From: a virus
Lineage: Duplodnaviria > Heunggongvirae > Uroviricota > Caudoviricetes
IMG/VR virus record: IMGVR_UViG_2874968258_000008
Length of the DNA stretch: 38,535 nucleotides
Strand: one strand, 5' to 3'
Below are positions 1 to 30,822 of this stretch, piece after piece. Both the position numbers and the translations under genes were made by a program. Below the pieces are notes generated by a model, which was not told the DNA's origin, did not search any database, and saw only the letters and a program-made list of their open reading frames with translations. How positions within the stretch are numbered: position 1 is the stretch's first letter; each line of letters starts with the position of its first letter.

Positions 1-141
1 TTACTGCTTACACTGTAAGAACGCCGCAAACTCCGCTCCCCAGAAGCTCATCCGTATTTCACACAGCGAACCGTGCAACATCCAGATGATGAGGATTGCC
101 GTCACGCAGAACGTGATGGTCGTAAGCGATTTTTGCGACAT
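1..141 (-). CDS. hok: Hok/Gef-family type I toxin peptide (46 aa); below the size cutoff of the supplied ORF track
   Basis: Manual translation of minus strand from ATG (141-139) to TAA (3-1): MSQKSLTTITFCVTAILIIWMLHGSLCEIRMSFWGAEFAAFLQCKQ; N-terminal hydrophobic helix followed by SLCEIR...AAF signature typical of Hok/Gef toxins; overlapped out of frame by a 70-codon ORF (59..271). Confidence 0.5.
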   Translation of the reverse strand: MSQKSLTTITFCVTAILIIWMLHGSLCEIRMSFWGAEFAAFLQCKQ

Positions 142-271
142 AGCACTTGCTCCTTTTCCGGAGAGGCGCTAACCTTTCACTTGTCAAGGTAATGCGGTTA
201 GGGCCTCGGTTAAACAGAGATGTTTTCCGGGGCCTTTCCACATCTGGCCTTCGGGTATTCCCTCCGACCAT
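59..271 (-). CDS. mok: mok-like overlapping reading frame of the hok locus (70 codons)
   Basis: 70-aa ORF in the supplied track overlapping the hok frame in another frame, same arrangement and length as mok in hok/sok loci; function inferred only from architecture. Confidence 0.3.
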   Translation of the reverse strand: MVGGNTRRPDVERPRKTSLFNRGPNRITLTSERLAPLRKRSKCYVAKIAYDHHVLRDGNPHHLDVARFAV

Positions 272-331
272 CAGCCGAAAGGCACCCGCGCGTAATCTAT
301 CGCTTTTTTGTTACTCCGGCAATTCTGCCTG

Positions 332-592
332 TTAATTCTGAGGTAAAGGCAAGCTCATCTGATTGTTTCCCCTGTGTGAAGCTGGCAGATCATGCCACGG
401 GATATCTTCTGAAGAGTGAACGCCGGAGGCGTGTTTTGATGTGAATTTATGGAAAGCTTCCAGTGTTGAGAAGCATACGCCGCATTCCAGATTGTTACAC
501 TGGTAATACTTTTGCCGCACGGTGTTTGAATCATTTTCCGGACGACTGGTGCGGATACGGGCAGATGCGCCACAAAGCGGACAACGGAACAT
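332..592 (-). CDS. ogr: Ogr/Delta-family zinc-finger late-gene transcription activator
   Basis: 86-aa ORF starting MFRCPLCGASARIRTSR...YYQCNNLECGVCF, matching the CxxC...CxxC N-terminus of P2 Ogr; located downstream of D as in P2. Confidence 0.8.
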   Translation of the reverse strand: MFRCPLCGASARIRTSRPENDSNTVRQKYYQCNNLECGVCFSTLEAFHKFTSKHASGVHSSEDIPWHDLPASHRGNNQMSLPLPQN

Positions 593-835
593 AGCGACCT
601 CCCTTAACGTAGTGCAGGGGCTATTCTAAGTTGTTCTGGCTCATACTCCAACAGCCAGTCCGTTTCGAGCGAAAAGCGGTGATTTAACTCTTGAAGAAAT
701 AGGCTTTGATACGATTTATCCAAAGCCTGTAAAAGATTGGAATGTTTTTTATCCTGTCATCTATTTTGGGAAAAGATCAGGAAATAGTTATGCACTTATA
801 GATTTACTATAGCATTGTATTATTTGAGTACACCC

Positions 836-2338
836 TCATGTTTTGATTTGTGCGCTAATAGAACTTTTCTGTCTTTTCTTCTGCTCTTGAATGTATGTCT
901 GCACCATTTCTGTTATGGTTGAAAATGCACTATGTTCTTCTATAGTTATTTTTAATTTAAATGTTTTAATGACCGGATTGGTAAGGTTATTTGCATCAAC
1001 TCTCACCTCAATTGCACCATTCACTTTCTTTGGTTTGTTGGCTGTATATACGAACAACGGGAATATTTCTTCTTTGACTTGATGACGCCACTCTTCGCAT
1101 TCCAGCGATACAACTTGAACTGGCTCATTTCTCTTTTCTTTATAATAAAAATCGTTTTTATCCCTTTCTGTTGGAGTAAGAGATAACAAAGGACCAATTT
1201 CTTTTGAAATTATACTGGATAGCGGTGTTTCCAAAGCTCCCCCAGCGTAAGGCATTCTTTCTGTTACGCCACATACACTACGCCATTTTCCTTTGGGGGC
1301 GGTAGGGGCTGAAGGTAGGTCAATCCTTTTGCTTTCAGTCAGCTCTTCCATTATCTCCCAATTAAATCCACACAGACGAAAATCTCCTTTTGCTGTAAAT
1401 GTTACCACAGCACGTTCAGCGATAGTATAACCTGTGTTTTGTAATAAAAACGACAGCGGGTAATTTATTGCCTTCGGATTAATATGAGTATGACAGTTTT
1501 TCAGTATTTCTTCACACTGCTTTTTCCAAAGTGGATAATGTTTTTCTTTATAAAGAGAAATATCATCTGCTGATACAGGGAAATACTCCTGTTGACTAAA
1601 TGACTTGATGATTTTTTCTAGTGATTGTGGGGTAGTTTGTTCATTGTCAAAGTTTGTAACCAATGGGAATGCATCCGTTAGTTGACAAAGCAAATTATCA
1701 ACTTCATATTCAGATAAAGCTGTATAATAAGGAAGTACAATATTTAATTGCTCGTCATCGGCTACTTTAATGCTGAAATCGGGCATAGACTGAGTGAATT
1801 GCTTCAGCTTAGCTTCCAGCAATTTAATTTGTTTATCCTTTTCATCTGGCTCAGCAGGAAGCAACCATGAAGAAGGCACTTTATAGCAGATTATATTATG
1901 TTTTATTGCTGAAAAACGTGGACCGCTATCATTGGTAATGATTGCCACCTCCGAATCTGGATCGTCAGCGCAATACCCTGCCGCAATACCAACAAAACGA
2001 TCGTCGGCCTCCTGATAATCCAATTGTTCAGATAACTGTTCACATGGTTTCAGGCTTAGATCCATGGTAAGAAAAACTCGCGGCGAGCGTTCACGAATAA
2101 CAAGAGTCATGTCAGTTGAATCAACTACTTGATTAAATAGGCTAGCAGCCTTCCTTGCTTTTTTGGATAGGCGGGAATTACCTTGCCCTTTCTGGCGGTC
2201 AATCTCTTGCTGAATGGGCCTTGTAATAATGATACATACTTCATCACAAGCAGTAATCTCGGAAAAATTTACCTGCGTCAAGTCCTTGCATTGTAGAAAA
2301 ATGTTTGAGTCTGGGAATAAATACAGCTTTTTGTTCAT
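836..2338 (-). CDS. Cargo protein, 500 aa, N-terminal PIN-like nuclease domain plus about 350 aa of unknown C-terminal region
   Basis: Long ORF in a markedly AT-rich island between D and ogr; N-terminus LYLFPDSNIFL...VCIIITRPIQQEIDR...VAIITNDSGPRF has the spaced acidic residues on predicted strand ends typical of PIN domains; RBS-like GAGG before ATG; no P2 counterpart at this position. Confidence 0.7.
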   Translation of the reverse strand: MNKKLYLFPDSNIFLQCKDLTQVNFSEITACDEVCIIITRPIQQEIDRQKGQGNSRLSKKARKAASLFNQVVDSTDMTLVIRERSPRVFLTMDLSLKPCEQLSEQLDYQEADDRFVGIAAGYCADDPDSEVAIITNDSGPRFSAIKHNIICYKVPSSWLLPAEPDEKDKQIKLLEAKLKQFTQSMPDFSIKVADDEQLNIVLPYYTALSEYEVDNLLCQLTDAFPLVTNFDNEQTTPQSLEKIIKSFSQQEYFPVSADDISLYKEKHYPLWKKQCEEILKNCHTHINPKAINYPLSFLLQNTGYTIAERAVVTFTAKGDFRLCGFNWEIMEELTESKRIDLPSAPTAPKGKWRSVCGVTERMPYAGGALETPLSSIISKEIGPLLSLTPTERDKNDFYYKEKRNEPVQVVSLECEEWRHQVKEEIFPLFVYTANKPKKVNGAIEVRVDANNLTNPVIKTFKLKITIEEHSAFSTITEMVQTYIQEQKKRQKSSISAQIKT

Positions 2339-2563
2339 TCAAACCTCAACTATGTCAATGGTGTTAGATTAATATAATAATAGTTATCAATTGGTTATCA
2401 AAGCATGATTCTTACCACCCCTGATGTCAGGTAGGAAAACACCATATGTTTCTGCTCTGTTTTTCCTTAGAAATAGGCATCCTTGCTGGAACAAAGCGAG
2501 CAGCTATATTGACTCTATGTTGTGAGTGTGTTGATCCGTTCTGAGTTAATACATTTAAGTTGC

Positions 2564-3673
2564 TCACTCTGTTTCTGCTATCCATTCCGGGATTTTTGCC
2601 TCAAGCTCAAGCTGCGTGGTAAAGCCGCTGTTATCAATGGTGTGCTCGGCTTTTGCAATAATCCAGTCCTGATTATCAATCTCGCTTTTAAATCCTGTTA
2701 CCGTGCCATGCATTTCGGGGTAGAGTTCTGCACGTCCATGCGCCAGTGTGATGGAGAATGATGCGGCTCCGCGTTGTAGCTGCTGCCACTTTGCCGCCGC
2801 TGCACGTCTTGCTGCCTGCTCGTTCTGATAAGTTTTGCGTAACACAAACACGTTGCCTTCCGCACCTTCCATATAGTCGCCTTCCCGGCTGCTGCTTTTC
2901 TCCTTTTTTGGTTTTGACGGTTTGCGGCGTTTCACGCTGACTTTTTTCTTTTTCCCGTAATTAAGATCAAGCCAGTAAGCGCGTACCCCCGTATACGCTT
3001 CGCGGTCAGCAATGCGGAACTGATGGCGATCGCCGCTGCTGCGTGTGATGGCGAACGAGGGCAACGGCTGGCCCTGTGCGTTCACGCCACCACCGGGCAT
3101 GATGAATAACAGATTACCGCTTTTTACCGTGGTGATTGCGCCCAGCATTTCCGCCATGCGCGTAAGGAAGGACATGTCGCTTTCTTCGGTCTGGTCGGCG
3201 TGGTCGATTTCGATATCCATCAGCATTTCGCTGATTTGCGGTTTCAGACCATACCGATGAGCGATGGCGGATACCACACGCTCAACGGTCACATCATGCC
3301 AGGACACCTCACGTTTAACGTTAAATTCAGCCCGAAAATCTGCGCTTCTGGCTGAAACAGTCAGCCTGTCCGGCGGTCCTTCGTGAGCGATTTCATCAAC
3401 AATGTAAGTGCCTTTTTCTGTCAGCGGTTCTCCCTTCCAGCCAATGAGAACCGTCAGGCGCGCGCCCCGTGGCGGTAGCTGCAACTGACCATCCGCATCA
3501 TCCAGCGTGATGGTGAGCTGGTCCGCCTCAAATCCCCGGTTGTCGGTCAGTGACAGGCTCATCAGGCGCTCTGCCACGCCTGACAGCGTTTTACCCTCCG
3601 CGAGAATATCAAAATCCGGCATTTTCACGGGGTCTGTGCCCTGACTGAGCAATTGCATGGTGGTGTCGGTCAT
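2564..3673 (-). CDS. D: Tail protein gpD (late control D protein family)
   Basis: 369-aa reading frame from internal ATG at 3673 preceded by GGGAGGGAG RBS (ORF track extends to 3805); sequence typical of P2 gpD / Mu gpP family. Confidence 0.85.
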   Translation of the reverse strand: MTDTTMQLLSQGTDPVKMPDFDILAEGKTLSGVAERLMSLSLTDNRGFEADQLTITLDDADGQLQLPPRGARLTVLIGWKGEPLTEKGTYIVDEIAHEGPPDRLTVSARSADFRAEFNVKREVSWHDVTVERVVSAIAHRYGLKPQISEMLMDIEIDHADQTEESDMSFLTRMAEMLGAITTVKSGNLLFIMPGGGVNAQGQPLPSFAITRSSGDRHQFRIADREAYTGVRAYWLDLNYGKKKKVSVKRRKPSKPKKEKSSSREGDYMEGAEGNVFVLRKTYQNEQAARRAAAAKWQQLQRGAASFSITLAHGRAELYPEMHGTVTGFKSEIDNQDWIIAKAEHTIDNSGFTTQLELEAKIPEWIAETE

Positions 3674-3830
3674 CTGCTCCCTCCCTGTGTGGCATGGTCG
3701 CATGTGCGTGCGGAGGGGGTTACTGCTTTTTGTTGTCGCCGTGGCGGGAGAATGGCGCAGGGGTGAGATTACGCGCGTGGTGGGTGATGATTGTTGCCGA
3801 ATCATTTAACGGATACAAGGGGTTGAAGCT

Positions 3831-5015
3831 ATGAGTGAAACTCGTTTTCATGGTGCCCGTGTTACGGAAAATACCGACCTGGTAACAGCGATTAACGATG
3901 TTGATTCCAGCGTTATCGGTATCGTGGCAACGGCGGATGATGCGGACGCGGAGCTGTTCCCGCTGAACAAGCCCACACTGCTGCCCCGCGTCAATGACGT
4001 GCTGGGAAAATGCGGAACAACGGGGACGCTTTATCGTGCGCTTAAGGCCATCGCAGACCAGGTGAGCACAAAGGTGATCGTCGTTCGCGTGGCTGAACAC
4101 AAAGAAGAAGACGGAAAAACGCAGGATCAACTGGTTATCGGTGGTTCTGAATCTGACGGCAGCTATACGGGGATGTATGCGCTGCTTGTTGCAGAGCAGG
4201 ATGAAAGCATCGGATACCGTCCGCGTATTCTGGCCGCGCCGGAGCTGGACACGGAGGCGGTGACAAAATCCCTGTGCGTGATTGCGGGTAAACTGCGCGC
4301 GTTTGTGTATGCCTCATGTCATGACTGTAACACGATGGCTGAGGCAATTACCTACCGCCAGAAATTCAACGAACGTGAGGTGATGCTCTTATGGCCGGAC
4401 TTCATCGCCTACAACCCGAAAAGTGGCAAAAACGAAACGTTCCCCGCGCCTGCCTATGCGTGCGGCCTTCGTGCGTACATTGACCATGAGCAGGGCTGGC
4501 ACAAATCGCTGTCCAACGTTCCGGTTAAAAATGTGCTGGGGATGTCCAGGCATGTGTTCTGGTCGTTGCAGGCCGAAGACAGTGATGCCAACAGCCTCAA
4601 CAACAAAGAAATCACGACCATTATTCGTCGCAACGGGTTCCGCTTCTGGGGCAACCGCACACCGGAAACGAACGCCTACATCTTTGAGGTGTATACCCGA
4701 ACCGCACAGGTGCTGGCTGATTCAATTGCGGAAGCGCAGTTTGAAACCATCGACAGTCCACTGACGCCTGCGAACGTGAAGGATGTTATCGGTGCCATCA
4801 GGGCAAAACTGGATTCACTGGTTACTGCCGGGAAACTGATTGGGGCGTCGTGCTGGTATGACGTGGTGGATAACGGCACCACGAATTTACGTCAGGGGCG
4901 CGTGCGTATTCGCTACAAATATACGCCTGTTCCCCCGCTGGAAGACATGGAGCTTTACCAGTCGTTTACTGATGAATTCTTTGGTCCCGCATTTGCGGTG
5001 CTGGGAGGTGCCTGA
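3831..5015 (+). CDS. FI: Tail sheath protein gpFI
   Basis: 394-aa ORF; conserved DADAE.FPLNKP and GTLY.AL.AIADQ motifs of P2 FI. Confidence 0.9.
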   Translation: MSETRFHGARVTENTDLVTAINDVDSSVIGIVATADDADAELFPLNKPTLLPRVNDVLGKCGTTGTLYRALKAIADQVSTKVIVVRVAEHKEEDGKTQDQLVIGGSESDGSYTGMYALLVAEQDESIGYRPRILAAPELDTEAVTKSLCVIAGKLRAFVYASCHDCNTMAEAITYRQKFNEREVMLLWPDFIAYNPKSGKNETFPAPAYACGLRAYIDHEQGWHKSLSNVPVKNVLGMSRHVFWSLQAEDSDANSLNNKEITTIIRRNGFRFWGNRTPETNAYIFEVYTRTAQVLADSIAEAQFETIDSPLTPANVKDVIGAIRAKLDSLVTAGKLIGASCWYDVVDNGTTNLRQGRVRIRYKYTPVPPLEDMELYQSFTDEFFGPAFAVLGGA

Positions 5016-5527
5016 TGGCTGTACCAAAACATCTTCGCTTTTTTACGCTGTTTGTGGATGGTGAAAACGAAGTGGGTAAGGTGACGTCCGTCACTCTGCC
5101 TAAGCTGACGCGCAAAACCGACAGCTACCGGGGTGGTGGCATGATGGGAGCGGTAAGTATTGATCTCGGCCTGGATGACTCCGCGCTTGATGCGAGCTTT
5201 GTCATGGGGGGCGCAGTTCGTGAGCTGTTCCTTAAGTATGGCGGCACGATTGACGGTACGCTGCTGCGTTTTGCGGGTGAATACTACACCGACGCTGAAA
5301 GCGACCTGTATGAAGTCGAAATGCGCGGACGTGTGACGGAAATTGATATGGGGGAAGCCAAACAGGGCGAAGCCACATCACACACTTACGCCATTAAAAA
5401 CACCTACTACAAGCTGAGTGTTAACGATCGCCCGTTGTGGGAGATTGACCTGCTGAACTTCATTTACCGGAAGGACGGCAGGGACATTGTGCCCGATCGC
5501 ATCCGTTCCGCGCTCGGGCTTGGCTGA
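5015..5527 (+). CDS. FII: Tail tube protein gpFII
   Basis: 170-aa ORF immediately after FI with ATGA start/stop overlap; P2 FII-like sequence. Confidence 0.9.
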   Translation: MAVPKHLRFFTLFVDGENEVGKVTSVTLPKLTRKTDSYRGGGMMGAVSIDLGLDDSALDASFVMGGAVRELFLKYGGTIDGTLLRFAGEYYTDAESDLYEVEMRGRVTEIDMGEAKQGEATSHTYAIKNTYYKLSVNDRPLWEIDLLNFIYRKDGRDIVPDRIRSALGLG

Positions 5528-5581
5528 TAAGTAATATGCAGGCGGCGCAGTGCGTCGCCTCTGACTGAAAGGAGTTTCCTG

Positions 5582-5947
5582 ATGAAAGAGACGAAAAACA
5601 TCGATACCGAAAACACGGTCGTTGCTGACACTGTGAAAGAAACCAGTGAGCGTGGCGTAAAACTTACCCAACCAATTGAGCGAGGCGGCGAAAAAATCAC
5701 GTATGTGGAGATCACCGGGGCTATTGAGCAGGCTGGATCTCTGCGAGATTTGTCGCTGTCTGATGTGCTGAATTTGAAAGCGGAATCCATGTTTACGCTG
5801 CTGTCACGCGTGACATCACCGCGACTGGATGAAGTGACGATCAAAAAAATGGCATCCCGTGACTTTATTCAGTTATGTGTGGTTGCCGTAAATTTTTTGA
5901 GCGGTGCGGACTCTGGCGAGAAGAACGAACAGGCGACGGAAGCCTGA
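5582..5947 (+). CDS. E: Tail assembly chaperone gpE
   Basis: 121-aa ORF between FII and the tape measure gene, position and size as P2 E. Confidence 0.8.
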   Translation: MKETKNIDTENTVVADTVKETSERGVKLTQPIERGGEKITYVEITGAIEQAGSLRDLSLSDVLNLKAESMFTLLSRVTSPRLDEVTIKKMASRDFIQLCVVAVNFLSGADSGEKNEQATEA

Positions 5948-6111
5948 TCACGGTTGTGTGCTTTGAGCACATAGAAGACTTTGTGGCGGATATTGCCGCC
6001 ATTTTTAACTGGTCGCCCGCCGAAATCTTCATGATGACGCCCGGCGAAGTGGTTAGCTGGCGTGAGCGGGCGGCACTTCGCAGCGGGAATGCAGACAATG
6101 AAGACTCTTGA
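5582..6111 (+). CDS. gpE+E' frameshift fusion (programmed -1 ribosomal frameshift)
   Basis: Slippery heptamer T_TTT_TTG at 5893-5899 in E frame; -1 frame continues open to TGA at 6109-6111 (ORF 5875..6111) overlapping the start of T, as for P2 E/E' and lambda G/GT. Confidence 0.55.
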
Positions 6112-8905
6112 TATCCGGGTCGCTTTCAGCGCCGTTGACAGGCTGACCCGGCCTGCCGAAAACGCCCGCCGCCTGATGGGGCAGTTTGGTGACTCCATCC
6201 AGCGAACGCAGGGGGCGATCAAAAATCTCGAGCGTCAGGCGCGTTCATTTGAGCGCGCCCGTGACGCTGTCAGTAAAGCGGATGCGGGCATCGTGAAAGC
6301 ACGACGCCAGCTTAACGCCCTTAATCAGTTACAACGCACGGGTACAGTGCTCAGCGAAAAACAACAAAAGCTGATGCAGCAGTTAAGCACCCGGCTTGAA
6401 CGCCTGAATGAATCGCGCACACGGGAAATTCAGAAAATGCGGGAACTTGGCGGAGAGCTGAAACGCCACGGCATTTCCCTGACAGGCAGCGATAACACCA
6501 TCCAGCAGGCCATCAGACGCACCGGACAATACAACAACCAGCTTGAACGCGAACGGCGGGCGCTTGCGCGTGTAACGCAGGCGCGTGAGCGGTATTCACG
6601 CGCGCAGGAAACAGCGGGAAAACTGAAAACAGGTGGTGCGCTGGCAACAGGTGCGGCGGCAGCGGGCGGCTATGCTGCCGGGCGTTTTTTGCAGCCCGCT
6701 ATCGGGTTCGGGAAAGAGATGTCCCGTGTTCAGGCACTGACGCGAATCGATAAAAACAGCCCGCAGTTTAAGGCGCTGCGTGAGCAGGCGTTAAAACTTG
6801 GCTCTGAAACGCAGTTCACCGCAGGCGATGCCGCCAGTGGACAGGCATTTCTTGCAATGGCTGGTTTCACACCGCAGGCCATTCAGGCTGCGCTTCCCGG
6901 CGTGCTGAGCATGGCAACGGCTGGCGGTATGGACCTCGGCGAGACGGCGGATATTGGTTCCAATATCCTGACGCAGTTCGGCCTCTCTGCTGACCAGATG
7001 GACCGGGTCGGTGACACACTTACCGCAGCGTTTACCCGTACCAACACTGACCTTCGCGCACTGGGCGAAACCATGAAATATGCAGGTCCGGTGGCGGGTA
7101 AGCTGGGAATATCGCTGGAGCAGGCCGCAGCGATGGCGGGCGTGCTGGCGAAGATGGGTATCAGGGGGAGTGATGCAGGTACAGCGTTGCGTAAAAGCCT
7201 GGCCAATCTGTCATCACCGCCAAAGGCAGCGGCAGAAGCACTGAAAGAGCTGGGGGTGTCAGTTGCTGACGCCAAAGGCAAAATGCGCCCGATGGAGAAT
7301 GTGCTGGCCGATCTCTATAAAGCCACCCGCAAATACGGGGAGGTTGACCGGGTATCGTTCTTTAAGGACATTGCCGGAGAAGAGGCTTTCACATCATTTA
7401 TGGGCCTCGTTGATGCGGCAGGTGACGGCTTCTTAGCCAAACTGAGAAAAGAACTTGAAGGCGCGCGCGGTGAGGCAGAACGCACGGCAAAGGTTATGGC
7501 CAATAACCTTGATGGCAACCTGAAATCACTCGGCAGTGCATGGGAAGGTCTGCGTATTCGCATCAGTGATCTGGTTGACGGTCCGCTGCGTTCTGTCACG
7601 CAGTGGCTCACGCGGGTTGTCTCAAAGGTGACGGCGCTGGCGCAGGCCCACCCGGCACTGACGCGCCAGTTACTGATAGCGGGAGGCGCACTGCTGGCGA
7701 CAACAGCAACGGTTGGTTCGTTGTCTCTGGTTATTGGGGTGCTTCACGGGAAGCTGGCTACGTTGCGTCTCGGTTTTTCTCTCCTGACCGAATCAATGAA
7801 TGTTGTCAGGGTTCTGCCTGCATTATGGGGAATGGTGACGGGTTCCGTTTCTTTACTTGGTGGCGCTATCGGGGCGCTGTTCAGTCCGGTTAGTCTTATC
7901 GTGGCTGCGCTTGCCGGAGCTGCCGTTCTTATCTGGAAATACTGGGATCCCATCAGGGCATTTTTTGCCGGGGTGTTCAGCGGGATTATGGAAAGGCTGA
8001 CCCCGTTGCGCGAAACCTTTGAACGGTTTGGCCCTGTTTTTGATGTCGTGCGCGATGGGATTATTCAGGTCTTTAACTGGTTTAAATCGCTGCTGTCACC
8101 GATGGAGTCCAGCAAGGAAACGCTGGATAAATGTGCCAGTGCTGGCGAGATATTCGGTAACGTTCTTGGCGGTGCGTTACAACTTGTTCTGACACCTGCA
8201 AAAATGCTACTGGATACGCTGGCGTGGATACTTGAAAAACTTGGCGTCCTTCCGGATGAAGCGGAAAGGGCGCGCAAGAAAATCGAAGACGCACAGCGTG
8301 CGGCCATTCTTCAGGACAAGGTTGCCTTGCTTCAGGGGAACCTGGCGAAAATCAATCCGCCGAAGCCTGTGGAAAATGGCAATGGCACCGGAGGTGATAA
8401 ACCCAAAGACAACAAACCGCTCACAGACAGCAATACCGGGACGCTACGCAGACTCAGCAAAATTGCTGATAACACAGGTAAGCTGGTTGATGAGACGAAA
8501 AAACGCATTGGCCCCGGCGATATTGTCTTTAAGAACCTGCCCCGCGCACTTGCTGTTCGTGGGGAGTGGCAGGAGCGGAAGATTGCGCAGGTCAGTAAGC
8601 CTGCCCCCGCAATTAATATCACACCCGTGGTCCCGGCTCCGCTGCCTCCGGCGCTGGTCCCTGTTGTTGCGGCCAGCTCCCGCCCGGTGGCGGAGGCCAT
8701 ACGCTCTCCAGTGGCATCAGTTCCTGTAACTTCCCGTAACCGGGAGCCTGTTGCCTCCGGATTTGGTGGTGAAATTCATGTTCATCTGCATAACGTTGTT
8801 ACGCAGAATCCCCGCGAACTGGCGAAACTGGTCGGTGAAATGGTCAGGGCAGAAATGGAACGGCGCGCCCGTGCCGGGCGTGGCAGTTTTTACGATAAAG
8901 ATTGA
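6089..8905 (+). CDS. T: Tail tape measure protein gpT
   Basis: About 940-aa ORF, Ala/Gly-rich with central hydrophobic segments, follows E/E'; start could be ATG 6089 or 6098 (ORF track opens at 6062). Confidence 0.85.
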   Translation: MQTMKTLDIRVAFSAVDRLTRPAENARRLMGQFGDSIQRTQGAIKNLERQARSFERARDAVSKADAGIVKARRQLNALNQLQRTGTVLSEKQQKLMQQLSTRLERLNESRTREIQKMRELGGELKRHGISLTGSDNTIQQAIRRTGQYNNQLERERRALARVTQARERYSRAQETAGKLKTGGALATGAAAAGGYAAGRFLQPAIGFGKEMSRVQALTRIDKNSPQFKALREQALKLGSETQFTAGDAASGQAFLAMAGFTPQAIQAALPGVLSMATAGGMDLGETADIGSNILTQFGLSADQMDRVGDTLTAAFTRTNTDLRALGETMKYAGPVAGKLGISLEQAAAMAGVLAKMGIRGSDAGTALRKSLANLSSPPKAAAEALKELGVSVADAKGKMRPMENVLADLYKATRKYGEVDRVSFFKDIAGEEAFTSFMGLVDAAGDGFLAKLRKELEGARGEAERTAKVMANNLDGNLKSLGSAWEGLRIRISDLVDGPLRSVTQWLTRVVSKVTALAQAHPALTRQLLIAGGALLATTATVGSLSLVIGVLHGKLATLRLGFSLLTESMNVVRVLPALWGMVTGSVSLLGGAIGALFSPVSLIVAALAGAAVLIWKYWDPIRAFFAGVFSGIMERLTPLRETFERFGPVFDVVRDGIIQVFNWFKSLLSPMESSKETLDKCASAGEIFGNVLGGALQLVLTPAKMLLDTLAWILEKLGVLPDEAERARKKIEDAQRAAILQDKVALLQGNLAKINPPKPVENGNGTGGDKPKDNKPLTDSNTGTLRRLSKIADNTGKLVDETKKRIGPGDIVFKNLPRALAVRGEWQERKIAQVSKPAPAINITPVVPAPLPPALVPVVAASSRPVAEAIRSPVASVPVTSRNREPVASGFGGEIHVHLHNVVTQNPRELAKLVGEMVRAEMERRARAGRGSFYDKD

Positions 8906-8911
8906 GGAGTC

Positions 8912-9406
8912 ATGGCCATGATGATGATCTACGGCATGTTTGTTTTTGAGCTGCGTACATTGCCGCATCAGCAGTTACAGCAAAACAAAAGCTGGCGGCA
9001 TGTGAAAAATGAACGCGTTAACCGTTCGGCAAGCTGGCAGTATATCGGTGCAGGTGATGAGCGCATCGTTCTTTCTGGTGTGCTTTATCCTGAAATTACA
9101 GGTGGCGAAGTGTCGCTGTCGCTGCTGACCACGCAGGCGTATACAGGACGACCCTGGCCTCTGATTGATGGCGTCGGGCAGATTTACGGCATGTATGTCC
9201 TGACCGAAACGAATACGACCCGCTCCGAGTTTGATCGCTACGGTAAGGCGAAAAAGATAGAATTTTCACTGACTCTTGAACGCTGTGATGAGGATTTGCG
9301 GGAGCGCCTGCAATCCTCATCGTTCAGCGATATGCTGTCCGGCTTCAAAGATAAGGTAACATCATCCCTTAACAGCGCGGCCAGTTCAGTTAAAGGGTTG
9401 TTCTGA
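8912..9406 (+). CDS. U: Tail protein gpU
   Basis: 164-aa ORF, YGMFVFELRTLPHQ N-terminus similar to P2 U; directly after T. Confidence 0.85.
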   Translation: MAMMMIYGMFVFELRTLPHQQLQQNKSWRHVKNERVNRSASWQYIGAGDERIVLSGVLYPEITGGEVSLSLLTTQAYTGRPWPLIDGVGQIYGMYVLTETNTTRSEFDRYGKAKKIEFSLTLERCDEDLRERLQSSSFSDMLSGFKDKVTSSLNSAASSVKGLF

Positions 9407-9414: not shown

Positions 9415-9452
9415 AAAAACCGCTAATGGTCAGATTAGCGGTTATTTTGTTT
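9415..9452. terminator. Bidirectional rho-independent terminator between convergent U and invertase genes
   Basis: Hairpin ACCGCTAAT-GGTCAG-ATTAGCGGT flanked by A-run upstream and TATTTTGTTT downstream, so it carries a U-tract on either strand. Confidence 0.5.
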
Positions 9453-10029
9453 CCTGACTCTTCTCTATTGTTCCGATTGATTCTCCTGCGGGGTGGTAAC
9501 GATAAATCGTCGATATACCAATGCCGTAAATTATTGCCAGTTGTTTTCTGTCGTGCCCGTTTTTGATCAGCCTTGCTATTTGCTCATGCTGTTCTTTTGT
9601 CAGCTTCGGTCGACGTCCGCCTGTGCGCCCCCGTGCGCGTGCTGCCGCCAGTCCGGCCAGTGTACGTTCAACAATTAATTCACGTTCCATTTCAGCCAGG
9701 GCACCCATCACGTGGAAGAAAAAACGCCCCATTGGAGAAGATGTATCTATGCTGTCGGTCAGACTGCGAAAATTAATTCCTCGCTCCCGTAGTTCCCCGA
9801 CGAGAGAAATCAGATGTTTCATGCTTCGCCCGAGGCGATCCAGTTTCCAGACAACCAGCGTGTCACCTTTTTGAAGGCGCTTTAAAGCGCGTTTTAATCC
9901 CGGTCGGTCTGTCTTTGTCCCGCTTAATTTATCTTCAAATATTTGTTCACATCCTGCACAAACAAGAGCGTTTCGTTGCAGGTCTGTATTCTGGTCATTT
10001 GTTGATACCCTTACATAGCCAATCAGCAC
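9442..10029 (-). CDS. Serine-recombinase DNA invertase (Gin/Pin/Cin/Hin family)
   Basis: Translation LIGYVRVSTNDQNTDLQRNAL...GDTLVVWKLDRLGRS...GRRPKLT is near-identical to Mu Gin / e14 Pin; GTG start at 10029 with GGGAG RBS preferred over the upstream ATG at 10047 used by the ORF track. Confidence 0.85.
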   Translation of the reverse strand: MLIGYVRVSTNDQNTDLQRNALVCAGCEQIFEDKLSGTKTDRPGLKRALKRLQKGDTLVVWKLDRLGRSMKHLISLVGELRERGINFRSLTDSIDTSSPMGRFFFHVMGALAEMERELIVERTLAGLAAARARGRTGGRRPKLTKEQHEQIARLIKNGHDRKQLAIIYGIGISTIYRYHPAGESIGTIEKSQETK

Positions 10030-10083
10030 GCTGAATCTCCCGTCCAAAAGCGCAAATCATGTCATGCAGGCCGGAAACGGCCA

Positions 10084-10094
10084 TTATCTAAAAC
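10084..10094. repeat. Outer part of the left inversion crossover site (gix-like), separated from the rest by the IS insertion
   Basis: TTATCTAAAAC immediately left of IS copy A; joined to 11362..11376 (minus one copy of the 3-bp duplication) it reconstitutes TTATCTAAAACCTCGGTTTACAGGAA, the inverted partner of the site at 15693..15718. Confidence 0.55.
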
Positions 10095-10158
10095 TGAGGT
10101 AGCCTGAGTTTAACGGACACTCCTTCCTGAAATAGAATGGCATCAGAAGGAGCTAATA

Positions 10159-10461
10159 ATGAGCAGAAAAACCCAACGTTACTCTAAAGAGTTCAAAGCC
10201 GAAGCTGTCAGAACGGTTCTTGAAAATCAACTTTCGATCAGTGAAGGCGCTTCCCGATTATCTCTTCCTGAAGGCACTTTAGGACAATGGGTTACCGCCG
10301 CCAGAAAAGGGCTCGGTACTCCTGGTTCCCGCACGGTGGCTGAACTGGAATCTGAAATTCTGCAACTGCGTAAGGCGTTAAATGAAGCTCGCCTTGAGCG
10401 AGATATATTAAAAAAAGCAACAGCGTATTTTGCACAGGAGTCGCTGAAAAATACGCGTTAA
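10159..10461 (+). CDS. IS3-family transposase OrfA (HTH)
   Basis: 100-aa ORF; slippery A_AAA_AAG at 10418-10425 near its 3' end. Confidence 0.85.
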   Translation: MSRKTQRYSKEFKAEAVRTVLENQLSISEGASRLSLPEGTLGQWVTAARKGLGTPGSRTVAELESEILQLRKALNEARLERDILKKATAYFAQESLKNTR

Positions 10462-10496
10462 TCGAACAATGGCGACAACAATTTCCCATTGAAGCG

Positions 10497-11315
10497 ATGT
10501 GTCAGGTATTTGGTGTATCCAGGAGCGGTTATTACAACTGGGTACAGCATGAACCCTCAGACAGAAAACAAAGTGATGAGCGGCTAAAACTGGAGATTAA
10601 GGTGGCACATATCCGCACTCGCGAAACATATGGAACCCGGCGGCTCCAGACGGAGCTGGCAGAGAATGGCATCATCGTTGGTCGTGACCGACTGGCACGT
10701 CTTCGTAAGGAGCTAAGGCTACGCTGTAAGCAGAAACGCAAGTTCAGAGCGACTACGAACTCGAACCACAATCTGCCAGTTGCGCCAAATCTGCTGAACC
10801 AGACGTTCGCTCCTACAGCACCAAATCAGGTCTGGGTGGCGGACCTGACGTATGTTGCCACACAGGAGGGATGGTTGTACCTCGCTGGCATCAAAGATGT
10901 TTATACGTGCGAAATTGTCGGCTACGCCATGGGAGAGCGCATGACAAAAGAGCTGACAGGTAAAGCCCTGTTTATGGCGCTCAGGAGCCAGCGCCCACCT
11001 GCCGGGCTAATCCACCACTCTGATCGAGGTTCACAGTACTGCGCATACGATTACCGGGTCATACAGGAGCAGTTTGGTCTGAAAACATCAATGTCGCGTA
11101 AAGGTAACTGTTACGACAACGCTCCGATGGAAAGCTTCTGGGGAACGCTGAAAAATGAGAGCCTGAGCCACTATCGTTTTAATAACCGGGATGAAGCCAT
11201 CTCAGTAATACGGGAATACATTGAGATTTTCTACAATCGTCAGCGTCGTCACTCTCGTCTGGGGAATATCTCCCCGGCAGCCTTCAGGGAAAAATATCAT
11301 CAGATGGCTGCTTAA
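10497..11315 (+). CDS. IS3-family transposase OrfB (DDE integrase domain), expressed as OrfAB by -1 frameshift
   Basis: 272-aa ORF in the -1 frame relative to orfA; DDE region HHSDRGSQY...CYDNAPMESFWGTLK. Confidence 0.85.
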   Translation: MCQVFGVSRSGYYNWVQHEPSDRKQSDERLKLEIKVAHIRTRETYGTRRLQTELAENGIIVGRDRLARLRKELRLRCKQKRKFRATTNSNHNLPVAPNLLNQTFAPTAPNQVWVADLTYVATQEGWLYLAGIKDVYTCEIVGYAMGERMTKELTGKALFMALRSQRPPAGLIHHSDRGSQYCAYDYRVIQEQFGLKTSMSRKGNCYDNAPMESFWGTLKNESLSHYRFNNRDEAISVIREYIEIFYNRQRRHSRLGNISPAAFREKYHQMAA

Positions 11316-11358
11316 AAAAAGAACAAATGGTAGTGTCCGCTATTGCCAGTACACCTCA

Positions 11359-11376
11359 AACCTCGGTTTACAGGAA
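11359..11376. repeat. Inner part of the left inversion crossover site (gix-like) including the AAC target duplication
   Basis: AACCTCGGTTTACAGGAA directly right of IS copy A; CCTCGGTTTACAGGAA is the exact inverted copy of TTCCTGTAAACCGAGG in the H gene. Confidence 0.6.
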
Positions 11377-12944: not shown

Positions 12945-13075
12945 TCATTCTGGTTGTTCGGGAAACGTTACTGGCAGGCTGGAGGTGTCTGTGGATTCGA
13001 CCTTCTGCGCATAGAGCATCCACTCGGTTAATTTTTGTTTATTCTCGTCGGAAATAATGCCCAGCCGTAGCTGTG
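12945..13075 (-). pseudogene. G: 3' fragment of tail fibre assembly gene G, cut off by IS copy B
   Basis: Minus-strand frame continuous with G across the IS (after removing IS plus one GTG duplication) translates QLRLGIISDENKQKLTEWMLYAQKVESTDTSSLPVTFPEQPE then TGA at 12947-12945, a typical Tfa C-terminus. Confidence 0.6.
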
Positions 13076-13118
13076 TGAGGTGTACTGGCAATAGCGGACA
13101 CTACCATTTGTTCTTTTT

Positions 13119-13937
13119 TTAAGCAGCCATCTGATGATATTTTTCCCTGAAGGCTGCCGGGGAGATATTCCCCAGACGAGAGTGACGACGCTGACGATTG
13201 TAGAAAATCTCAATGTATTCCCGTATTACTGAGATGGCTTCATCCCGGTTATTAAAACGATAGTGGCTCAGGCTCTCATTTTTCAGCGTTCCCCAGAAGC
13301 TTTCCATCGGAGCGTTGTCGTAACAGTTACCTTTACGCGACATTGATGTTTTCAGACCAAACTGCTCCTGTATGACCCGGTAATCGTATGCGCAGTACTG
13401 TGAACCTCGATCAGAGTGGTGGATTAGCCCGGCAGGTGGGCGCTGGCTCCTGAGCGCCATAAACAGGGCTTTACCTGTCAGCTCTTTTGTCATGCGCTCT
13501 CCCATGGCGTAGCCGACAATTTCGCACGTATAAACATCTTTGATGCCAGCGAGGTACAACCATCCCTCCTGTGTGGCAACATACGTCAGGTCCGCCACCC
13601 AGACCTGATTTGGTGCTGTAGGAGCGAACGTCTGGTTCAGCAGATTTGGCGCAACTGGCAGATTGTGGTTCGAGTTCGTAGTCGCTCTGAACTTGCGTTT
13701 CTGCTTACAGCGTAGCCTTAGCTCCTTACGAAGACGTGCCAGTCGGTCACGACCAACGATGATGCCATTCTCTGCCAGCTCCGTCTGGAGCCGCCGGGTT
13801 CCATATGTTTCGCGAGTGCGGATATGTGCCACCTTAATCTCCAGTTTTAGCCGCTCATCACTTTGTTTTCTGTCTGAGGGTTCATGCTGTACCCAGTTGT
13901 AATAACCGCTCCTGGATACACCAAATACCTGACACAT
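13119..13937 (-). CDS. IS3-family transposase OrfB (copy B)
   Basis: 272-aa ORF identical in translation to 10497..11315. Confidence 0.85.
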   Translation of the reverse strand: MCQVFGVSRSGYYNWVQHEPSDRKQSDERLKLEIKVAHIRTRETYGTRRLQTELAENGIIVGRDRLARLRKELRLRCKQKRKFRATTNSNHNLPVAPNLLNQTFAPTAPNQVWVADLTYVATQEGWLYLAGIKDVYTCEIVGYAMGERMTKELTGKALFMALRSQRPPAGLIHHSDRGSQYCAYDYRVIQEQFGLKTSMSRKGNCYDNAPMESFWGTLKNESLSHYRFNNRDEAISVIREYIEIFYNRQRRHSRLGNISPAAFREKYHQMAA

Positions 13938-13972
13938 CGCTTCAATGGGAAATTGTTGTCGCCATTGTTCGA

Positions 13973-14275
13973 TTAACGCGTATTTTTCAGCGACTCCTGT
14001 GCAAAATACGCTGTTGCTTTTTTTAATATATCTCGCTCAAGGCGAGCTTCATTTAACGCCTTACGCAGTTGCAGAATTTCAGATTCCAGTTCAGCCACCG
14101 TGCGGGAACCAGGAGTACCGAGCCCTTTTCTGGCGGCGGTAACCCATTGTCCTAAAGTGCCTTCAGGAAGAGATAATCGGGAAGCGCCTTCACTGATCGA
14201 AAGTTGATTTTCAAGAACCGTTCTGACAGCTTCGGCTTTGAACTCTTTAGAGTAACGTTGGGTTTTTCTGCTCAT
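13973..14275 (-). CDS. IS3-family transposase OrfA (copy B)
   Basis: 100-aa ORF identical in translation to 10159..10461. Confidence 0.85.
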   Translation of the reverse strand: MSRKTQRYSKEFKAEAVRTVLENQLSISEGASRLSLPEGTLGQWVTAARKGLGTPGSRTVAELESEILQLRKALNEARLERDILKKATAYFAQESLKNTR

Positions 14276-14331
14276 TATTAGCTCCTTCTGATGCCATTCT
14301 ATTTCAGGAAGGAGTGTCCGTTAAACTCAGG

Positions 14332-14745
14332 CTACCTCAGTGAGTCCCATAGCTGGGTTTTATCCCTGACGAGCTGTAGCAGGCTTTGCTTTTCATTTTC
14401 CGCTTGTTGCCTCTGCTCTTCCCCGGTATAAGTTCGCTTTATCACTACGCCATCTTTGAACATCCATTTACCTGAAATATCAGCCCGGCGATTTGCTGTA
14501 ATATCAGGAACCTCAACGACGCTTGCGCCTTCCGGATTAATTGCTGAAACATCCTTTTCAATACAAATAATAACGCCGTTGTGGTCATAGACCATTTTCA
14601 ACGTATCAGGCTGAAAGTTCTTTTGTTCCTCATACCAGTTTTTCCCATCCTCTGTATAAAGCCATTTGATGTTAAATTGTTTCGTTAGCTGGTATTGCTC
14701 TTTTGTTTCAGGATTACCAGCAGAAATGTTTTTTAAGTGCATCAT
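14332..14745 (-). pseudogene. G: Tail fibre assembly gene G, 5' portion, truncated by IS copy B
   Basis: 137-aa ORF whose last two codons and stop lie in the IS terminus; about 40 aa shorter than paralog G' and missing the conserved C-terminus found at 12945..13075. Confidence 0.7.
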
Positions 14746-21728: not shown

Positions 21729-22231
21729 CAGCACAACTCCGCAAAGATTCGCGGGCGGCACAGAATGTCAGAGATGGCCCAGCTCACATCGCGCCACAAA
21801 TCCGATGTCTGTATATCCAGTGCGTCCGCCCGGCGGTCGCCCTTGTCCGTTGTGTCCGCATCGCGGTAACGCTCCAGAATCAGGGCGCGTGTGGCGGTAT
21901 AAACAGCATTGCGCCAGTGCCAGAGATTGACGCTTTCTCCGTTAATTACAGGTGCCGGAACATCGGCCAGCGTCTGATGGCCAGCCGCCTGCTGTTCCTG
22001 CTGCCATGCTTCCAGCTCGCGGGTAACGTGTGCCACGGCCCCGGTGGCGGTATGCAGCAGGCGGGAGGTGGTCACGCGGCCCGGCAGTCGTACCGCCAGA
22101 CGCAGCTCGCGCAGCACAATATCCGGCCAGAATGCACCCGCTGAAATACGGGTATCGCCATCTTCGGTGTCGGTGATGTCGTCCTCTGCGGGTCCGGGTT
22201 CAGTTCTGGCAACCATACTCATGGGGTTCAC
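21728..22231 (-). CDS. L: Head completion/stabilisation protein gpL
   Basis: 167-aa ORF between M and X. Confidence 0.75.
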   Translation of the reverse strand: MNPMSMVARTEPGPAEDDITDTEDGDTRISAGAFWPDIVLRELRLAVRLPGRVTTSRLLHTATGAVAHVTRELEAWQQEQQAAGHQTLADVPAPVINGESVNLWHWRNAVYTATRALILERYRDADTTDKGDRRADALDIQTSDLWRDVSWAISDILCRPRIFAELC

Positions 22232-22323
22232 TCCTGAAAAAATCGGGCGGTGGGTGCGCGGTGTAAACGGTCACGGAGCCAAACCGGAACACCGCGCACG
22301 CCGCCCGCTGACGGGGTCAGTCG

Positions 22324-28034: not shown

Positions 28035-28060
28035 CGCGCTTCGCTTGTCTGCTGCTTCGC

Positions 28061-28711: not shown

Positions 28712-28725
28712 TAATCCCCCTTGAG

Positions 28726-28965
28726 CTATTTACTCTTCTCGGCCCTCAAAATCATACGAGAACCATCATCCAGCTCCCAATTAATTTCACCGCCTTCTGC
28801 CATGACTAGATGCCAAACGAGTTGAGCGGCCTCGTTGGTTACATCGCGACCGCGATCATTTCCTACGCGGCGTTTTGTTCCGTCTCCTAAGTCACGCATT
28901 TTTGCCAATACGATGGTTTTTGATAGCGGTGAAAAACCAAGCTGTAGTCGTGCTGAATTACTCAC
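28726..28965 (-). CDS. Hypothetical protein (79 aa)
   Basis: ORF whose start overlaps the stop of the upstream 174-aa ORF (ATGA). Confidence 0.5.
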   Translation of the reverse strand: MSNSARLQLGFSPLSKTIVLAKMRDLGDGTKRRVGNDRGRDVTNEAAQLVWHLVMAEGGEINWELDDGSRMILRAEKSK

Positions 28966-29486
28966 TGGCTGCCCCCTTTGTACTGTGTTAACTCTTCCTG
29001 CTCCTGCATCATGCGATTGACCTGAACGCGTGTGCGTCGAACGGCAAAATTAAATTGAAACATGAGCCGGAACATTTCTGATGCTTCCGTGTGAGCATCA
29101 CGGATAGGTGACAGGCGGTACAGTTCTGCCTCCGTAGCTTGTTGAATCAATGACAGATCAAATTGAAGTGCGGGTCTGGTACATTTTGCACATCTGGCAG
29201 CAAGCTCCGGTATTAGTCTCTTAACGAAGGTGTTTTGCACCGCTTTGTTGATTTGTGTCTGCATCCAAATCGCAAATTTCAGCGAACGCATAAGTTTGAT
29301 AGCCTCGGGCAGCGGCAGATAGATCATGCTGGTAGATTTGGGTGGTTGGTGAACCATCTTCACGGATACGCGATTTCGCAGCGTTCGGAAAATCGTGTTC
29401 CCAACAACAGCTTCTACGGATACAGGACAGGGAGCCAGACCAGCCCGCAGTGCTTCTTTCATTAGCATGTATTCGTATTTTTTCAT
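28962..29486 (-). CDS. Hypothetical protein (174 aa)
   Basis: First ORF of a three-gene cluster downstream of parR; lower GC than the phage core. Confidence 0.55.
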   Translation of the reverse strand: MKKYEYMLMKEALRAGLAPCPVSVEAVVGNTIFRTLRNRVSVKMVHQPPKSTSMIYLPLPEAIKLMRSLKFAIWMQTQINKAVQNTFVKRLIPELAARCAKCTRPALQFDLSLIQQATEAELYRLSPIRDAHTEASEMFRLMFQFNFAVRRTRVQVNRMMQEQEELTQYKGGSQ

Positions 29487-29546: not shown

Positions 29547-29858
29547 TCATTCAGGAAATAATGCCCGGATATTCCCTGCTATCTGACTGGTTATCTGTGC
29601 GGTTGGTACTGGCTGTGGCACGGGGCGTTCTGTCCTGGTTTGTGTCACCGATAACGCCTCATCGTCAGCCCATGCAGCCAGTCGGTAAGCCTCTGCTGGA
29701 TTCATTTTCAGAAGTGCCAGCCCGGCCAGAAAAGCCACGCGTTGGCCGCTTTTGCGGGCTTCTGGTGTAAGGCTGCCCAGCCAGGCGCATGCTTCGCTTT
29801 CGTTCTTGACGGCCGCAGGCTTCAGATAGAAACTTATCCGTCTGGTTGGTGTCGTCAT
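29547..29858 (-). CDS. parR: ParR-like centromere-binding adaptor protein
   Basis: 103-aa frame from MTTPTRRISFYLKP (ORF track extends to 29993); alignable from memory to plasmid R1 ParR (IAFKLNPD.., ..AALTAGLALYRQDP.., ..NILRSLFP); starts 4 nt after the parM stop. Confidence 0.65.
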   Translation of the reverse strand: MTTPTRRISFYLKPAAVKNESEACAWLGSLTPEARKSGQRVAFLAGLALLKMNPAEAYRLAAWADDEALSVTQTRTERPVPQPVPTAQITSQIAGNIRALFPE

Positions 29859-29862
29859 TGGT

Positions 29863-30822
29863 TTACTCCTTGTCCATTGCGTACAGCCCATTAACCAGAG
29901 CAAACTGTGGCACCCCGTCCGCGATGAAAGTCGCATTAACTCCGCAGGCTTCGCGGATAGCGGGTGCCACAATCTCCGCCCCTCCACCGACAACCATCAC
30001 CCGCCCGTAACCCGAAAAACCCGCCAGCGCGCGGATCACGCGTTGTTTCAGTGTTTCTTCCTTTTCACGAATAACCGCCATCAGGCTGGCGTAATGCGCG
30101 TCATTGTGGATGTGCTGGCGCAGCCAGGCTTCATCATGGCGATGTTCGATAATGGTATTGGCGATGTGGTGACTGGTGCGCATACCGTTAGTGGCCATCA
30201 CCGACAGTACGGCATCGGCCATCAGAGAAACGCCTACGTGTGGATCGCAAAACACCTGGCTGATACCTGCCAGTTGCCCCTGAACCTTTGCCACATCCAG
30301 CGTGGTTCCGCCCAAATCCACAATCAGCAGGGATTCAAACGGACTCATGTCAGCCAGTGCCTTAAAGCCAGCCGGAATGGATTCAGGCATAACCCGCACG
30401 TTACGGATAGTGAATGCTTCGCCGTTCTGGTACTCCACCGGGCGCATAACGTTCGCTTTTTTGCGGTTGATGTTGGCCATGTCCGGCTGTGCGTTTGTGT
30501 CGAAATACTCGCTCAGTGGCAGGGTGACAACCACATCCACCTCCTGTGGCGTGATGCCTGATTTGACCAGCGCGTGATGAATGGCAATGACATTTACATC
30601 GCTGTACTGGTATTGCGTGTCGGTTGTCTGGACAAAGCGATCGCTGACCGGATCAAAACCATAGCGCACGCCATCAAGCATGTAGTTCGCGGGCTGCATG
30701 CCACCGAACGGCGCAGACCATTCCGACTTGAAGCTGTTCGGGCTGATGGCGTTGCGGCGTTCGCCGTTCTCAGTCCATGCCAGCTTGATGTTGGTGGAGC
30801 CGTCGTCGATACAAATTTTCAT
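29863..30822 (-). CDS. parM: ParM/StbA-family actin-like segregation ATPase
   Basis: 319 aa; actin-fold motifs DDGSTNIK (phosphate 1), IVDLGGTTLDVA (phosphate 2), VVGGGAE (adenosine); extended similarity to R1 ParM along the whole length. Confidence 0.8.
   Translation of the reverse strand: MKICIDDGSTNIKLAWTENGERRNAISPNSFKSEWSAPFGGMQPANYMLDGVRYGFDPVSDRFVQTTDTQYQYSDVNVIAIHHALVKSGITPQEVDVVVTLPLSEYFDTNAQPDMANINRKKANVMRPVEYQNGEAFTIRNVRVMPESIPAGFKALADMSPFESLLIVDLGGTTLDVAKVQGQLAGISQVFCDPHVGVSLMADAVLSVMATNGMRTSHHIANTIIEHRHDEAWLRQHIHNDAHYASLMAVIREKEETLKQRVIRALAGFSGYGRVMVVGGGAEIVAPAIREACGVNATFIADGVPQFALVNGLYAMDKE

Follow-up and report, generated by a model that had tools for sequence, protein, structure and literature searches.

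A PIN-domain protein with an Ig-like C-terminal module, carried as exchangeable cargo at the D-ogr junction of a P2-like prophage, is a candidate single-protein defence factor

Rousset 2022 and Vassallo 2022 are said to place the hotspot cargo of P2-like phages at the old/tin and Z/fun loci. Further minor P2 hotspots have been added by a 2026 survey. PIN nucleases, for their part, have been validated as effectors of anti-phage defence in several architectures. DS-3 (E. coli WP_022645725.1, DefensePredictor) is a validated single-protein defence with a split PIN domain whose catalytic residues are required for defence and for which auto-inhibition until infection has been proposed, and DS-5, likewise validated, joins a PIN_12 protein to a DUF5830 partner (PMC13092281). 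In HEC-03, also validated, an ATP-binding cassette (ABC) ATPase is combined with a VapC-like PIN protein. The gene described here lies in a stretch of 38,535 nucleotides of viral DNA (IMG/VR record IMGVR_UViG_2874968258_000008, referred to as the window), which represents a P2-like prophage of the P88 type (genus Xuanwuvirus). Located between the core genes gpD and ogr, it encodes a protein in which an N-terminal PIN domain is followed by a C-terminal module composed of a small α/β unit and an immunoglobulin (Ig)-like β-sandwich (Table 1). With moderate confidence we propose that this gene is a self-contained single-protein factor for defence against phages, and more broadly against mobile elements, which the P2-like prophage carries as exchangeable cargo and in which an SMG6-type PIN domain serves as the effector and the C-terminal module as the sensor.

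The effector half can be placed in the PIN_4 clade. A reading of this DNA made from its letters alone and without database searches (hereafter the sequence-only reading) had called for a check of the PIN fold and of its acidic site by profile and structure-based searches. In this check the Pfam family PIN_4 (PF13638) matches residues 10-151 with 33.9 bits as compared to a cut-off of 21.9 and over model positions 4-128 of 132, and the N-terminal domain shows the three-layer α/β/α fold that is characteristic of PIN domains. In the AlphaFold model the acidic residues occupy the canonical PIN positions, that is, after β1, in the helix following β2, at the start of the helix following β3 and after β4. 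They comprise D10 in the motif LFPD, E45/D47 in QQEIDR, D112/D113 in EADD and D137 in TNDSG, and in an alignment of 43 sequences with identities down to 28%, E45, D112 and D137 are invariant while D10 is conserved in at least 90%. The three motifs in which the sequence-only reading had recognised the PIN pattern (LYLFPDSNIF, an acidic residue after the second strand, and AIITNDSG) are thus real and conserved, and its acidic set holds for D10, E45/D47 and D137 but is to be completed by the fourth position, D112/D113, which had been overlooked. By conservation as well as by secondary-structure position the four residues correspond to the metal site of SMG6 (D1251, E1282, D1353, D1392). SMG6 and Dis3, which contain the equivalent D/E/D/D set, cut single-stranded RNA with Mn2+ (PMC5499597).

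The nearest PIN structures and the members of the Pfam family (SMG6, Nmd4, Dis3, Utp24 and VapC) are all ribonucleases (RNases). A search of the PDB sequences with the PIN domain alone returned chance matches only. From its closest PIN clade we infer that the N-terminal domain is a metal-dependent endoribonuclease effector with RNA as its substrate. The relationship does not extend beyond this domain, for SMG6, Nmd4 and Dis3 (Rrp44) act in the RNA surveillance of eukaryotes and have unrelated partner domains, no similar C-terminal module and no link to phages. A different effector would be conceivable if the protein were a PIN-like structure-specific or single-strand DNase that defends the cell by attacking phage replication intermediates. 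The only names given in RefSeq to the exact 500-amino-acid sequence are 'PIN domain-containing protein' and 'DNA-binding protein'. The latter, however, is an automatic name without evidence behind it, the matches of the β-sandwich are non-specific and the structural and family relationships of the PIN domain lead to ribonucleases throughout. We consider a DNA-targeting defence protein to be very improbable.

In contrast to the N-terminal half, the C-terminal half belongs to no described sequence family. The remaining 350 amino acids of the protein had already been found to resemble nothing that could be placed, and this is borne out by the searches: residues 186-470 have no match in Pfam, NCBIfam, PADLOC or the PDB sequences, the only match that the protein has in PHROGs is a family of unknown function (0.0027, over 47 residues), and a PDB search with the family profile gave chance matches only. 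When the module is modelled alone (predicted local distance difference test (pLDDT) score of 86, predicted template modelling (pTM) score of 0.75), the α/β unit, which includes a helical hairpin, packs on the Ig-like β-sandwich and is followed by the C-terminal helix. Motifs conserved in the module are YPxW..C, NxGxRPAxDA, LPxPPxxPxGxW, RDPNxFYYK, SLECEQWRH and HAxNL. Mean identity amounts to 48% in the PIN domain and to 33-35% in the C-terminal module outside of the β-sandwich loop formed by residues 355-390, and drops to 12% within this loop, in which residues 358-388 have pLDDT values below 50 in the AlphaFold model. That the effector half is better conserved than the C-terminal half is in line with our proposal, in which the latter would have the role of a sensor. 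Four residues of the module, C275, H283, C414 and H419 (window positions ~1082-1516, minus strand), are conserved throughout the family and are located in the helical hairpin and in the SLECEQWRH strand. Their conservation suggests a possible zinc site, of structural or regulatory function, which is of interest because RloC is Zn-responsive.

The genomic setting establishes that the gene is exchangeable cargo and not part of the phage core. As the sequence-only reading had stated, one long open reading frame (ORF) of 500 amino acids lies in an island of about 2 kb with a clearly lower guanine-plus-cytosine (GC) content. The ORF is complete, starts with ATG and is read from the minus strand. 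The GC content is 0.382 in the island (593..2563) and 0.383 in the ORF (0.319 at third codon positions) as compared to 0.526 in the window outside the island, where every other stretch of 1,971 bp has a value of at least 0.451. The flanks of the ORF, 243 bp and 225 bp in length, contain no plausible small ORF, the island contains no ATPase gene, and no Rfam match falls inside it, the sole match in the first 4 kb of the window being sok, outside the island. In the empty allele of the junction (L011) D and ogr are separated by 42 bp, and in phage P88 the two genes are adjacent and the cargo gene is absent. The earlier statement that P2 has essentially nothing between D and ogr is thus right for the empty allele. 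Matches to both the D and the ogr flank, at 94-99% identity, are found in 1,266 E. coli records of complete genomes, and the PIN island is present in 59 of these. Because so few of the flank-sharing records carry the gene and because P88 lacks it, it is cargo and not a conserved core gene of the lineage.

The D-ogr junction is moreover a recurrent exchange site. In an evenly spaced sample of the E. coli records both flanks were found in 33, of which 19 are empty, 2 contain the PIN island and 12 another cargo. These other cargos always consist of one gene, and there are at least seven of them besides the PIN gene, all in E. coli prophages (L012, L013, L014, L076-L079). They encode a YecA-family protein of 379 amino acids, a DUF3800 protein of 389, a DUF2971 protein of 261, a ParA-family protein of 352 and three distinct hypothetical proteins with lengths of 340, 221 and 487 amino acids. 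The DUF2971 cargo matches the PADLOC defence candidate PDC-S31 (5.6e-27), which is a point in favour of a defence role also for the PIN gene in the same slot. Most of the alternative cargos have no match in the defence databases and may be further candidates. The L077 cargo was considered as a homolog of DS-3, since both proteins have 340 amino acids, and was rejected as BLASTP shows no similarity between them. Like the cargo of the P2 hotspots, the PIN gene is a low-GC single gene that is swapped between core genes at a position that is variable or empty in relatives, and different from it, the gene occupies neither old/tin nor Z/fun. The sequence-only reading was hence correct in that the site is neither of the classic P2 loci, but the insertion is not a one-off event, as the site takes up alternative single-gene cargos.

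The ends of the insert (~634-660 and ~2490-2555) are common to alleles with unrelated cargos (L012-L014); these shared ends, which measure about 25 bp next to ogr and about 70 bp next to D, are missing from the empty allele. Together with the direct repeat that bounds the inserted segment (Table 1) they give the junction the look of a cassette-style exchange site or, alternatively, of an ancestral longer spacer that has been emptied by deletion between the repeats. Neither terminal inverted repeats nor transposon ends were found around the island beyond what is expected by chance. Outside of the window, the same island is present at 99.9% identity in a prophage of E. coli O111:H- 11128 that adjoins ihfA, and 540 contigs, among them some from Shigella sonnei and E. 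albertii, encode a protein identical to that of E. coli.

Beyond these close relatives the family is large. When a profile of only the C-terminal module was searched exhaustively, 1,321 representatives at 50% identity were obtained, 669 of which at E<=1e-30; the tiny family of 52 clusters that had been suggested by a word-indexed search was an artefact of sensitivity. Since nearly all representatives have about 500 amino acids and a module that begins close to residue 185, and since PIN_4 is detected in 9 of 10 distant homologs sampled (with P0055 just under the cut-off), the architecture is fixed. A differing architecture was seen once among the top 150 matches of the C-terminal module, in the metagenomic protein P0054 (745 amino acids), where the module is fused to a polytopic membrane protein (weak Wzy_C match) instead of a PIN domain and ends in a low-complexity tail. 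We do not regard it as an alternative effector fusion, since an artefact of chimeric assembly or of gene calling is the most likely explanation; a genuine fusion would be the sole alternative to PIN seen as N-terminal partner. In a scan of one genome per species, 60 loci were found in a wide and patchy distribution that includes Alpha-, Beta-, Gamma- and Deltaproteobacteria, many Dehalococcoidia, Planctomycetota, Acidobacteriota, Gemmatimonadota, Latescibacterota and others.

This distribution bears on whether the protein serves the phage instead of the lysogen. It might act as an RNase during lytic growth or induction, for instance in host shut-off or in the destruction of CRISPR RNA or retron non-coding RNA, or else as a regulator of lysogeny. 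The gene indeed has the same orientation as its neighbours, ogr and the late gene D, and might be expressed by read-through of late transcripts, and PIN_4 proteins, for example PhoH2-type fusions, are encoded by phages (PMC5499597). The cargo protein itself is not of the PhoH2 type, since it has no match to the C-terminal PhoH P-loop and its module is a β-sandwich. However, tblastn against 50,697 phage genome records found no homolog, and the 11 IMG/VR contigs that contain one all look like P2-type prophages. Most homologs are chromosomal and many reside in restriction-modification (R-M) operons of bacteria without phage genes nearby, and in the P88 lineage the gene is dispensable, being absent from most relatives. 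A benefit to the phage is, in our judgement, the least probable of the explanations considered here.

How does the protein compare with the known PIN-based systems? The comparison with defence catalogues proposed by the sequence-only reading was run and gave no match of the cargo protein in NCBIfam and not a single family in PADLOC-DB 2.0 at E<=1; this also sets it apart from HEC-03. The accessible part of the Rousset P2/P4 cargo table lists PIN_12 proteins and no member of the PIN_4 family. Like DS-3, the cargo protein is encoded by one gene with no antitoxin; unlike DS-3, it combines a contiguous PIN domain with an Ig-like module. The hhalign comparison of the family profile with DS-3 and with the DS-5 PIN protein gave a probability of 0.2% in each case, that is, no relationship. 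With VapC, HEC-03 and DS-5 it has in common that a PIN ribonuclease constitutes the toxic or effector part and that the genes occur in islands and in the vicinity of R-M systems. However, these are short PIN proteins with a separately encoded partner whereas the cargo protein is a fusion of 500 amino acids without a conserved partner. In particular, it is no VapBC module, which would consist of a PIN toxin of about 130-150 amino acids and a neighbouring antitoxin gene that in most cases overlaps it.

One could nevertheless envisage a selfish toxin-antitoxin fusion, whose PIN toxin is held in check in cis by the C-terminal part and which has no role against phages but ensures that the prophage, integrative conjugative element or R-M island that encodes it is retained. 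PIN domains are those of the classic VapC toxins, which cluster with R-M systems and islands (PMC5499597), VapC-type genes are found beside homologs, with VapBC pairs adjoining the gene in L009 and L010, and the prophage contains hok/sok and ParM/StbB stability genes as well. But a single stable polypeptide provides no obvious route to post-segregational killing, a labile antitoxin gene is lacking as is a conserved partner, and the hypervariable loop and the exchange of the gene as cargo fit the recognition of a changing target better. An addiction or stabilisation function therefore seems very unlikely to us.

In P2-like prophages the homologs occupy four different cargo slots, namely D-ogr (the window, L085 and L087), gpS-gpV (Rahnella, L002; 73% identity), gpA-portal, which is the classic old/tin locus (Enterobacter, L004, 52% identity; IMG/VR contig L089, 68% identity), and the position directly after the integrase (integrase-att) in a 186-like prophage (L008). 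Other homologs are found in an integrative conjugative element or adjoin a pair of a Gabija-like ATPase and UvrD among integrases. An ABC-type ATPase is near the gene in only 2 of the contexts seen. Clustering of the neighbours, four genes on each side at 65 loci, revealed no universal or conserved partner gene. At 18 of the 65 loci, however, type I R-M genes are located within four genes and on the same strand, in the order hsdM..hsdS-PIN-..hsdR, with HsdS usually encoded immediately upstream and HsdR downstream. VapBC pairs are often interleaved in these R-M-embedded loci (L010, L039, L045, L048, L056, L057 and 12 more), many of which come from metagenome assemblies of Dehalococcoidia. Recurring neighbours at the remaining loci are AbiEii/AbiEi pairs, WYL regulators, AAA_16 ATPases, Fic and transposases, besides ordinary metabolic genes.

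We regard the R-M-embedded placement as the most intriguing lead. The prrC gene lies between hsdS and hsdR, and 28% of the cargo family shares this position with it in the form of hsdS-PIN-hsdR; the fact that the linkage is partial resembles RloC. PrrC and RloC are latent anticodon nucleases of bacterial immunity. The gene of PrrC is linked to that of the type Ic enzyme EcoprrI, which silences PrrC and whose inhibition activates it, and RloC is likewise only sometimes R-M-linked (PMC1484252 and PMC3458546 for PrrC, PMC3458546 for RloC). As a special case of the defence proposal, the cargo protein might accordingly guard restriction: a type I R-M complex would keep it silent by contact, and an attack on this complex by an anti-restriction protein of a phage would set it off. 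The copy in the prophage would then act in trans with the type I enzyme of the host chromosome or would have become autonomous. Yet about 72% of the loci have no adjacent R-M genes, including the window, where the neighbours are ogr and gpD, and nothing points to physical contact with Hsd subunits. In addition, PrrC and RloC are composed of an ABC-ATPase N-domain, which regulates them, and an anticodon-nuclease C-domain, whereas the cargo family combines PIN with an Ig-like module and has no NTPase domain, PIN_4 being the only domain detected by Pfam. For the protein at hand we thus rate a guard function of this kind as unlikely.

Returning to the proposal of a self-contained defence factor, we picture its action as follows. 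The C-terminal α/β and Ig-like module, with its hypervariable loop, would keep the PIN effector inactive and at the same time serve as the sensor. Binding of an infection-specific cue, which might be a phage protein, would release the nuclease, and in the R-M-embedded relatives the cue might be the loss of the restriction complex or interference with it. The released nuclease would cut RNA of the cell and/or the phage, whereupon translation would cease and the infection would be aborted. The anti-phage reading gains strength from the location of the family in P2 cargo slots and in an integrative conjugative element, from the adjacency to Gabija-like genes and from its embedding in type I R-M operons, and it gains further from the fact that PIN nucleases are validated defence effectors in DS-3, DS-5 and HEC-03. 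It is from this context that we infer a defence phenotype for the cargo protein.

Several points weigh against this proposal. The association with defence genes concerns a minority of the loci, many chromosomal homologs are located among housekeeping genes, and the enrichment of the neighbourhoods for defence genes is qualitative only. The full-length model has a pTM of 0.55, a value at which it is uncertain how the two halves are oriented towards each other, so that the model lends no structural backing to the presumed auto-inhibition of the PIN domain by the C-terminal module. The nuclease might act on DNA instead of RNA. The promoter assigned to the cargo gene is a consensus match only, and such sites are no commoner in the region than in shuffled sequences. 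Finally, no study of, or experiment on, the protein or its homologs was found in the searched literature and paper supplements.

Taken together, both the observation and the interpretation of the sequence-only reading are supported as a whole, with the amendments that the cargo slot is a recurrent one and that the family is larger and more widespread. The effector and the design logic are of known kinds, in contrast to the putative sensor module, which is new; neither PADLOC-DB 2.0 nor NCBIfam nor the searched literature contains the family. If the defence function is confirmed, the gene would represent a new single-gene immune family with a sensor module without known relatives. The family is carried by prophages of Shiga-toxin-producing E. 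coli O111, of Shigella sonnei and of E. albertii and is widespread in environmental phyla. To our knowledge PrrC has for 30 years been almost the sole studied model of an RNase that guards a restriction system. With defence confirmed, the hsdS-hsdR placement would point to a possible second, independent RNase of this kind, testable in many organisms. It is tempting to go further and to regard the gene as the founding example of a widespread immune family, in which an SMG6-type RNase is controlled by an Ig-like sensor with a loop akin to a complementarity-determining region. In the prrC slot this family would pursue a second, structurally unrelated version of the PrrC strategy, firing when phages disarm restriction, while P2-like phages would have captured autonomous copies that protect their lysogens. 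This broader picture is speculative, and we doubt that it holds in full. The D-ogr junction of P88-type phages is a further exchangeable cargo slot, whose at least seven other uncharacterised single genes could be screened in the same way as those of old/tin and Z/fun.

Table 1. Features of the cargo gene, its insertion site and the surrounding prophage (window coordinates)
Feature	Position	Strand	Remarks
hok/gef toxin gene and sok antisense RNA	1-141 and 128-287	-	prophage end beside ogr; also in P88
ogr (flanking core gene)	332..592	-	Pfam Ogr_Delta 5e-14
Inserted segment relative to the empty D-ogr allele	634..2555	.	bounded by 7-bp direct repeat TAAGTTG at 627-633 and 2556-2562
PIN_4/Ig-like cargo ORF	836..2338	-	ATG start, 500 amino acids plus stop, complete
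C-terminal helix (residues 471-500)	839..928	-	AlphaFold
C-terminal module, putative sensor/regulatory (residues 186-470)	929..1783	-	small α/β unit and Ig-like β-sandwich
Hypervariable β-sandwich loop (residues 355-390)	1169..1276	-	indel-rich, predicted disordered
Linker helix between protein halves (residues 161-185)	1784..1858	-	AlphaFold helix H166-183
PIN domain, SMG6/Nmd4/Dis3 type (residues 1-160)	1859..2338	-	conserved acidic D10, E45, D112, D137
GAGG	2344-2347	-	5 nt before cargo ATG; consensus match only
Promoter-like site TTGATA-16-TATTAT	2374..2401	-	36 nt upstream of cargo ATG; consensus match only
gpD (flanking core gene)	2564..3673	-	369-amino-acid start agrees with RefSeq annotation of related prophages; Pfam Phage_GPD 5e-17
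DNA invertase	9442..10047	-	
Classic old/tin hotspot, portal Q to gpA	28035-30898		holds ParM- and StbB-like plasmid partition/stability genes
Unannotated 174-amino-acid ORF in old/tin hotspot	28962..29486	-	no Pfam match
ParM- and StbB-like genes	29547..30822	-	

As for the prophage itself, the layout of P88 is the same: hok, ogr and D share a strand, FI-FII-E-T-U lie on the opposite one, and a DNA invertase with an invertible tail-fibre segment follows. The orientation of the FI-U block (window 3831-9406) relative to D and to G/H (14332 onward), which is unlike that in P2, was considered as an anomalous inversion and rejected, since P88 is alike and the arrangement is hence a trait of the lineage. 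The match of sok to Rfam RF01794 scores 48.4 bits and is below the gathering score of 59. The gpD ORF itself extends over 2564..3805. In many related prophages (e.g. L001 of E. coli O111 11128, positions 21972-22825) RefSeq gives gpD as a coding sequence of 801 nt of the 'VgrG/Pvc8 family' with an overlapping pseudogene fragment of 93 nt. This split is probably an annotation artefact at the divergent D/FI junction, as the window and other records support the full D protein of 369 amino acids. The ParM/StbB pair that occupies the old/tin hotspot of the window is also present in the Enterobacter prophage L004, where the PIN homolog and an ABC ATPase are located beside it. Two inverted copies of an IS3-family insertion sequence (10093-11361 and 13073-14341), each of 1,269 bp and 100% identical, with ORFs of 100 and 272 amino acids and rve integrase domains, flank a 1.7-kb piece with an alternative tail-fibre tip and an assembly gene inside the invertase-controlled segment. 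The tail-fibre switch of this prophage is thus probably disrupted or rearranged.

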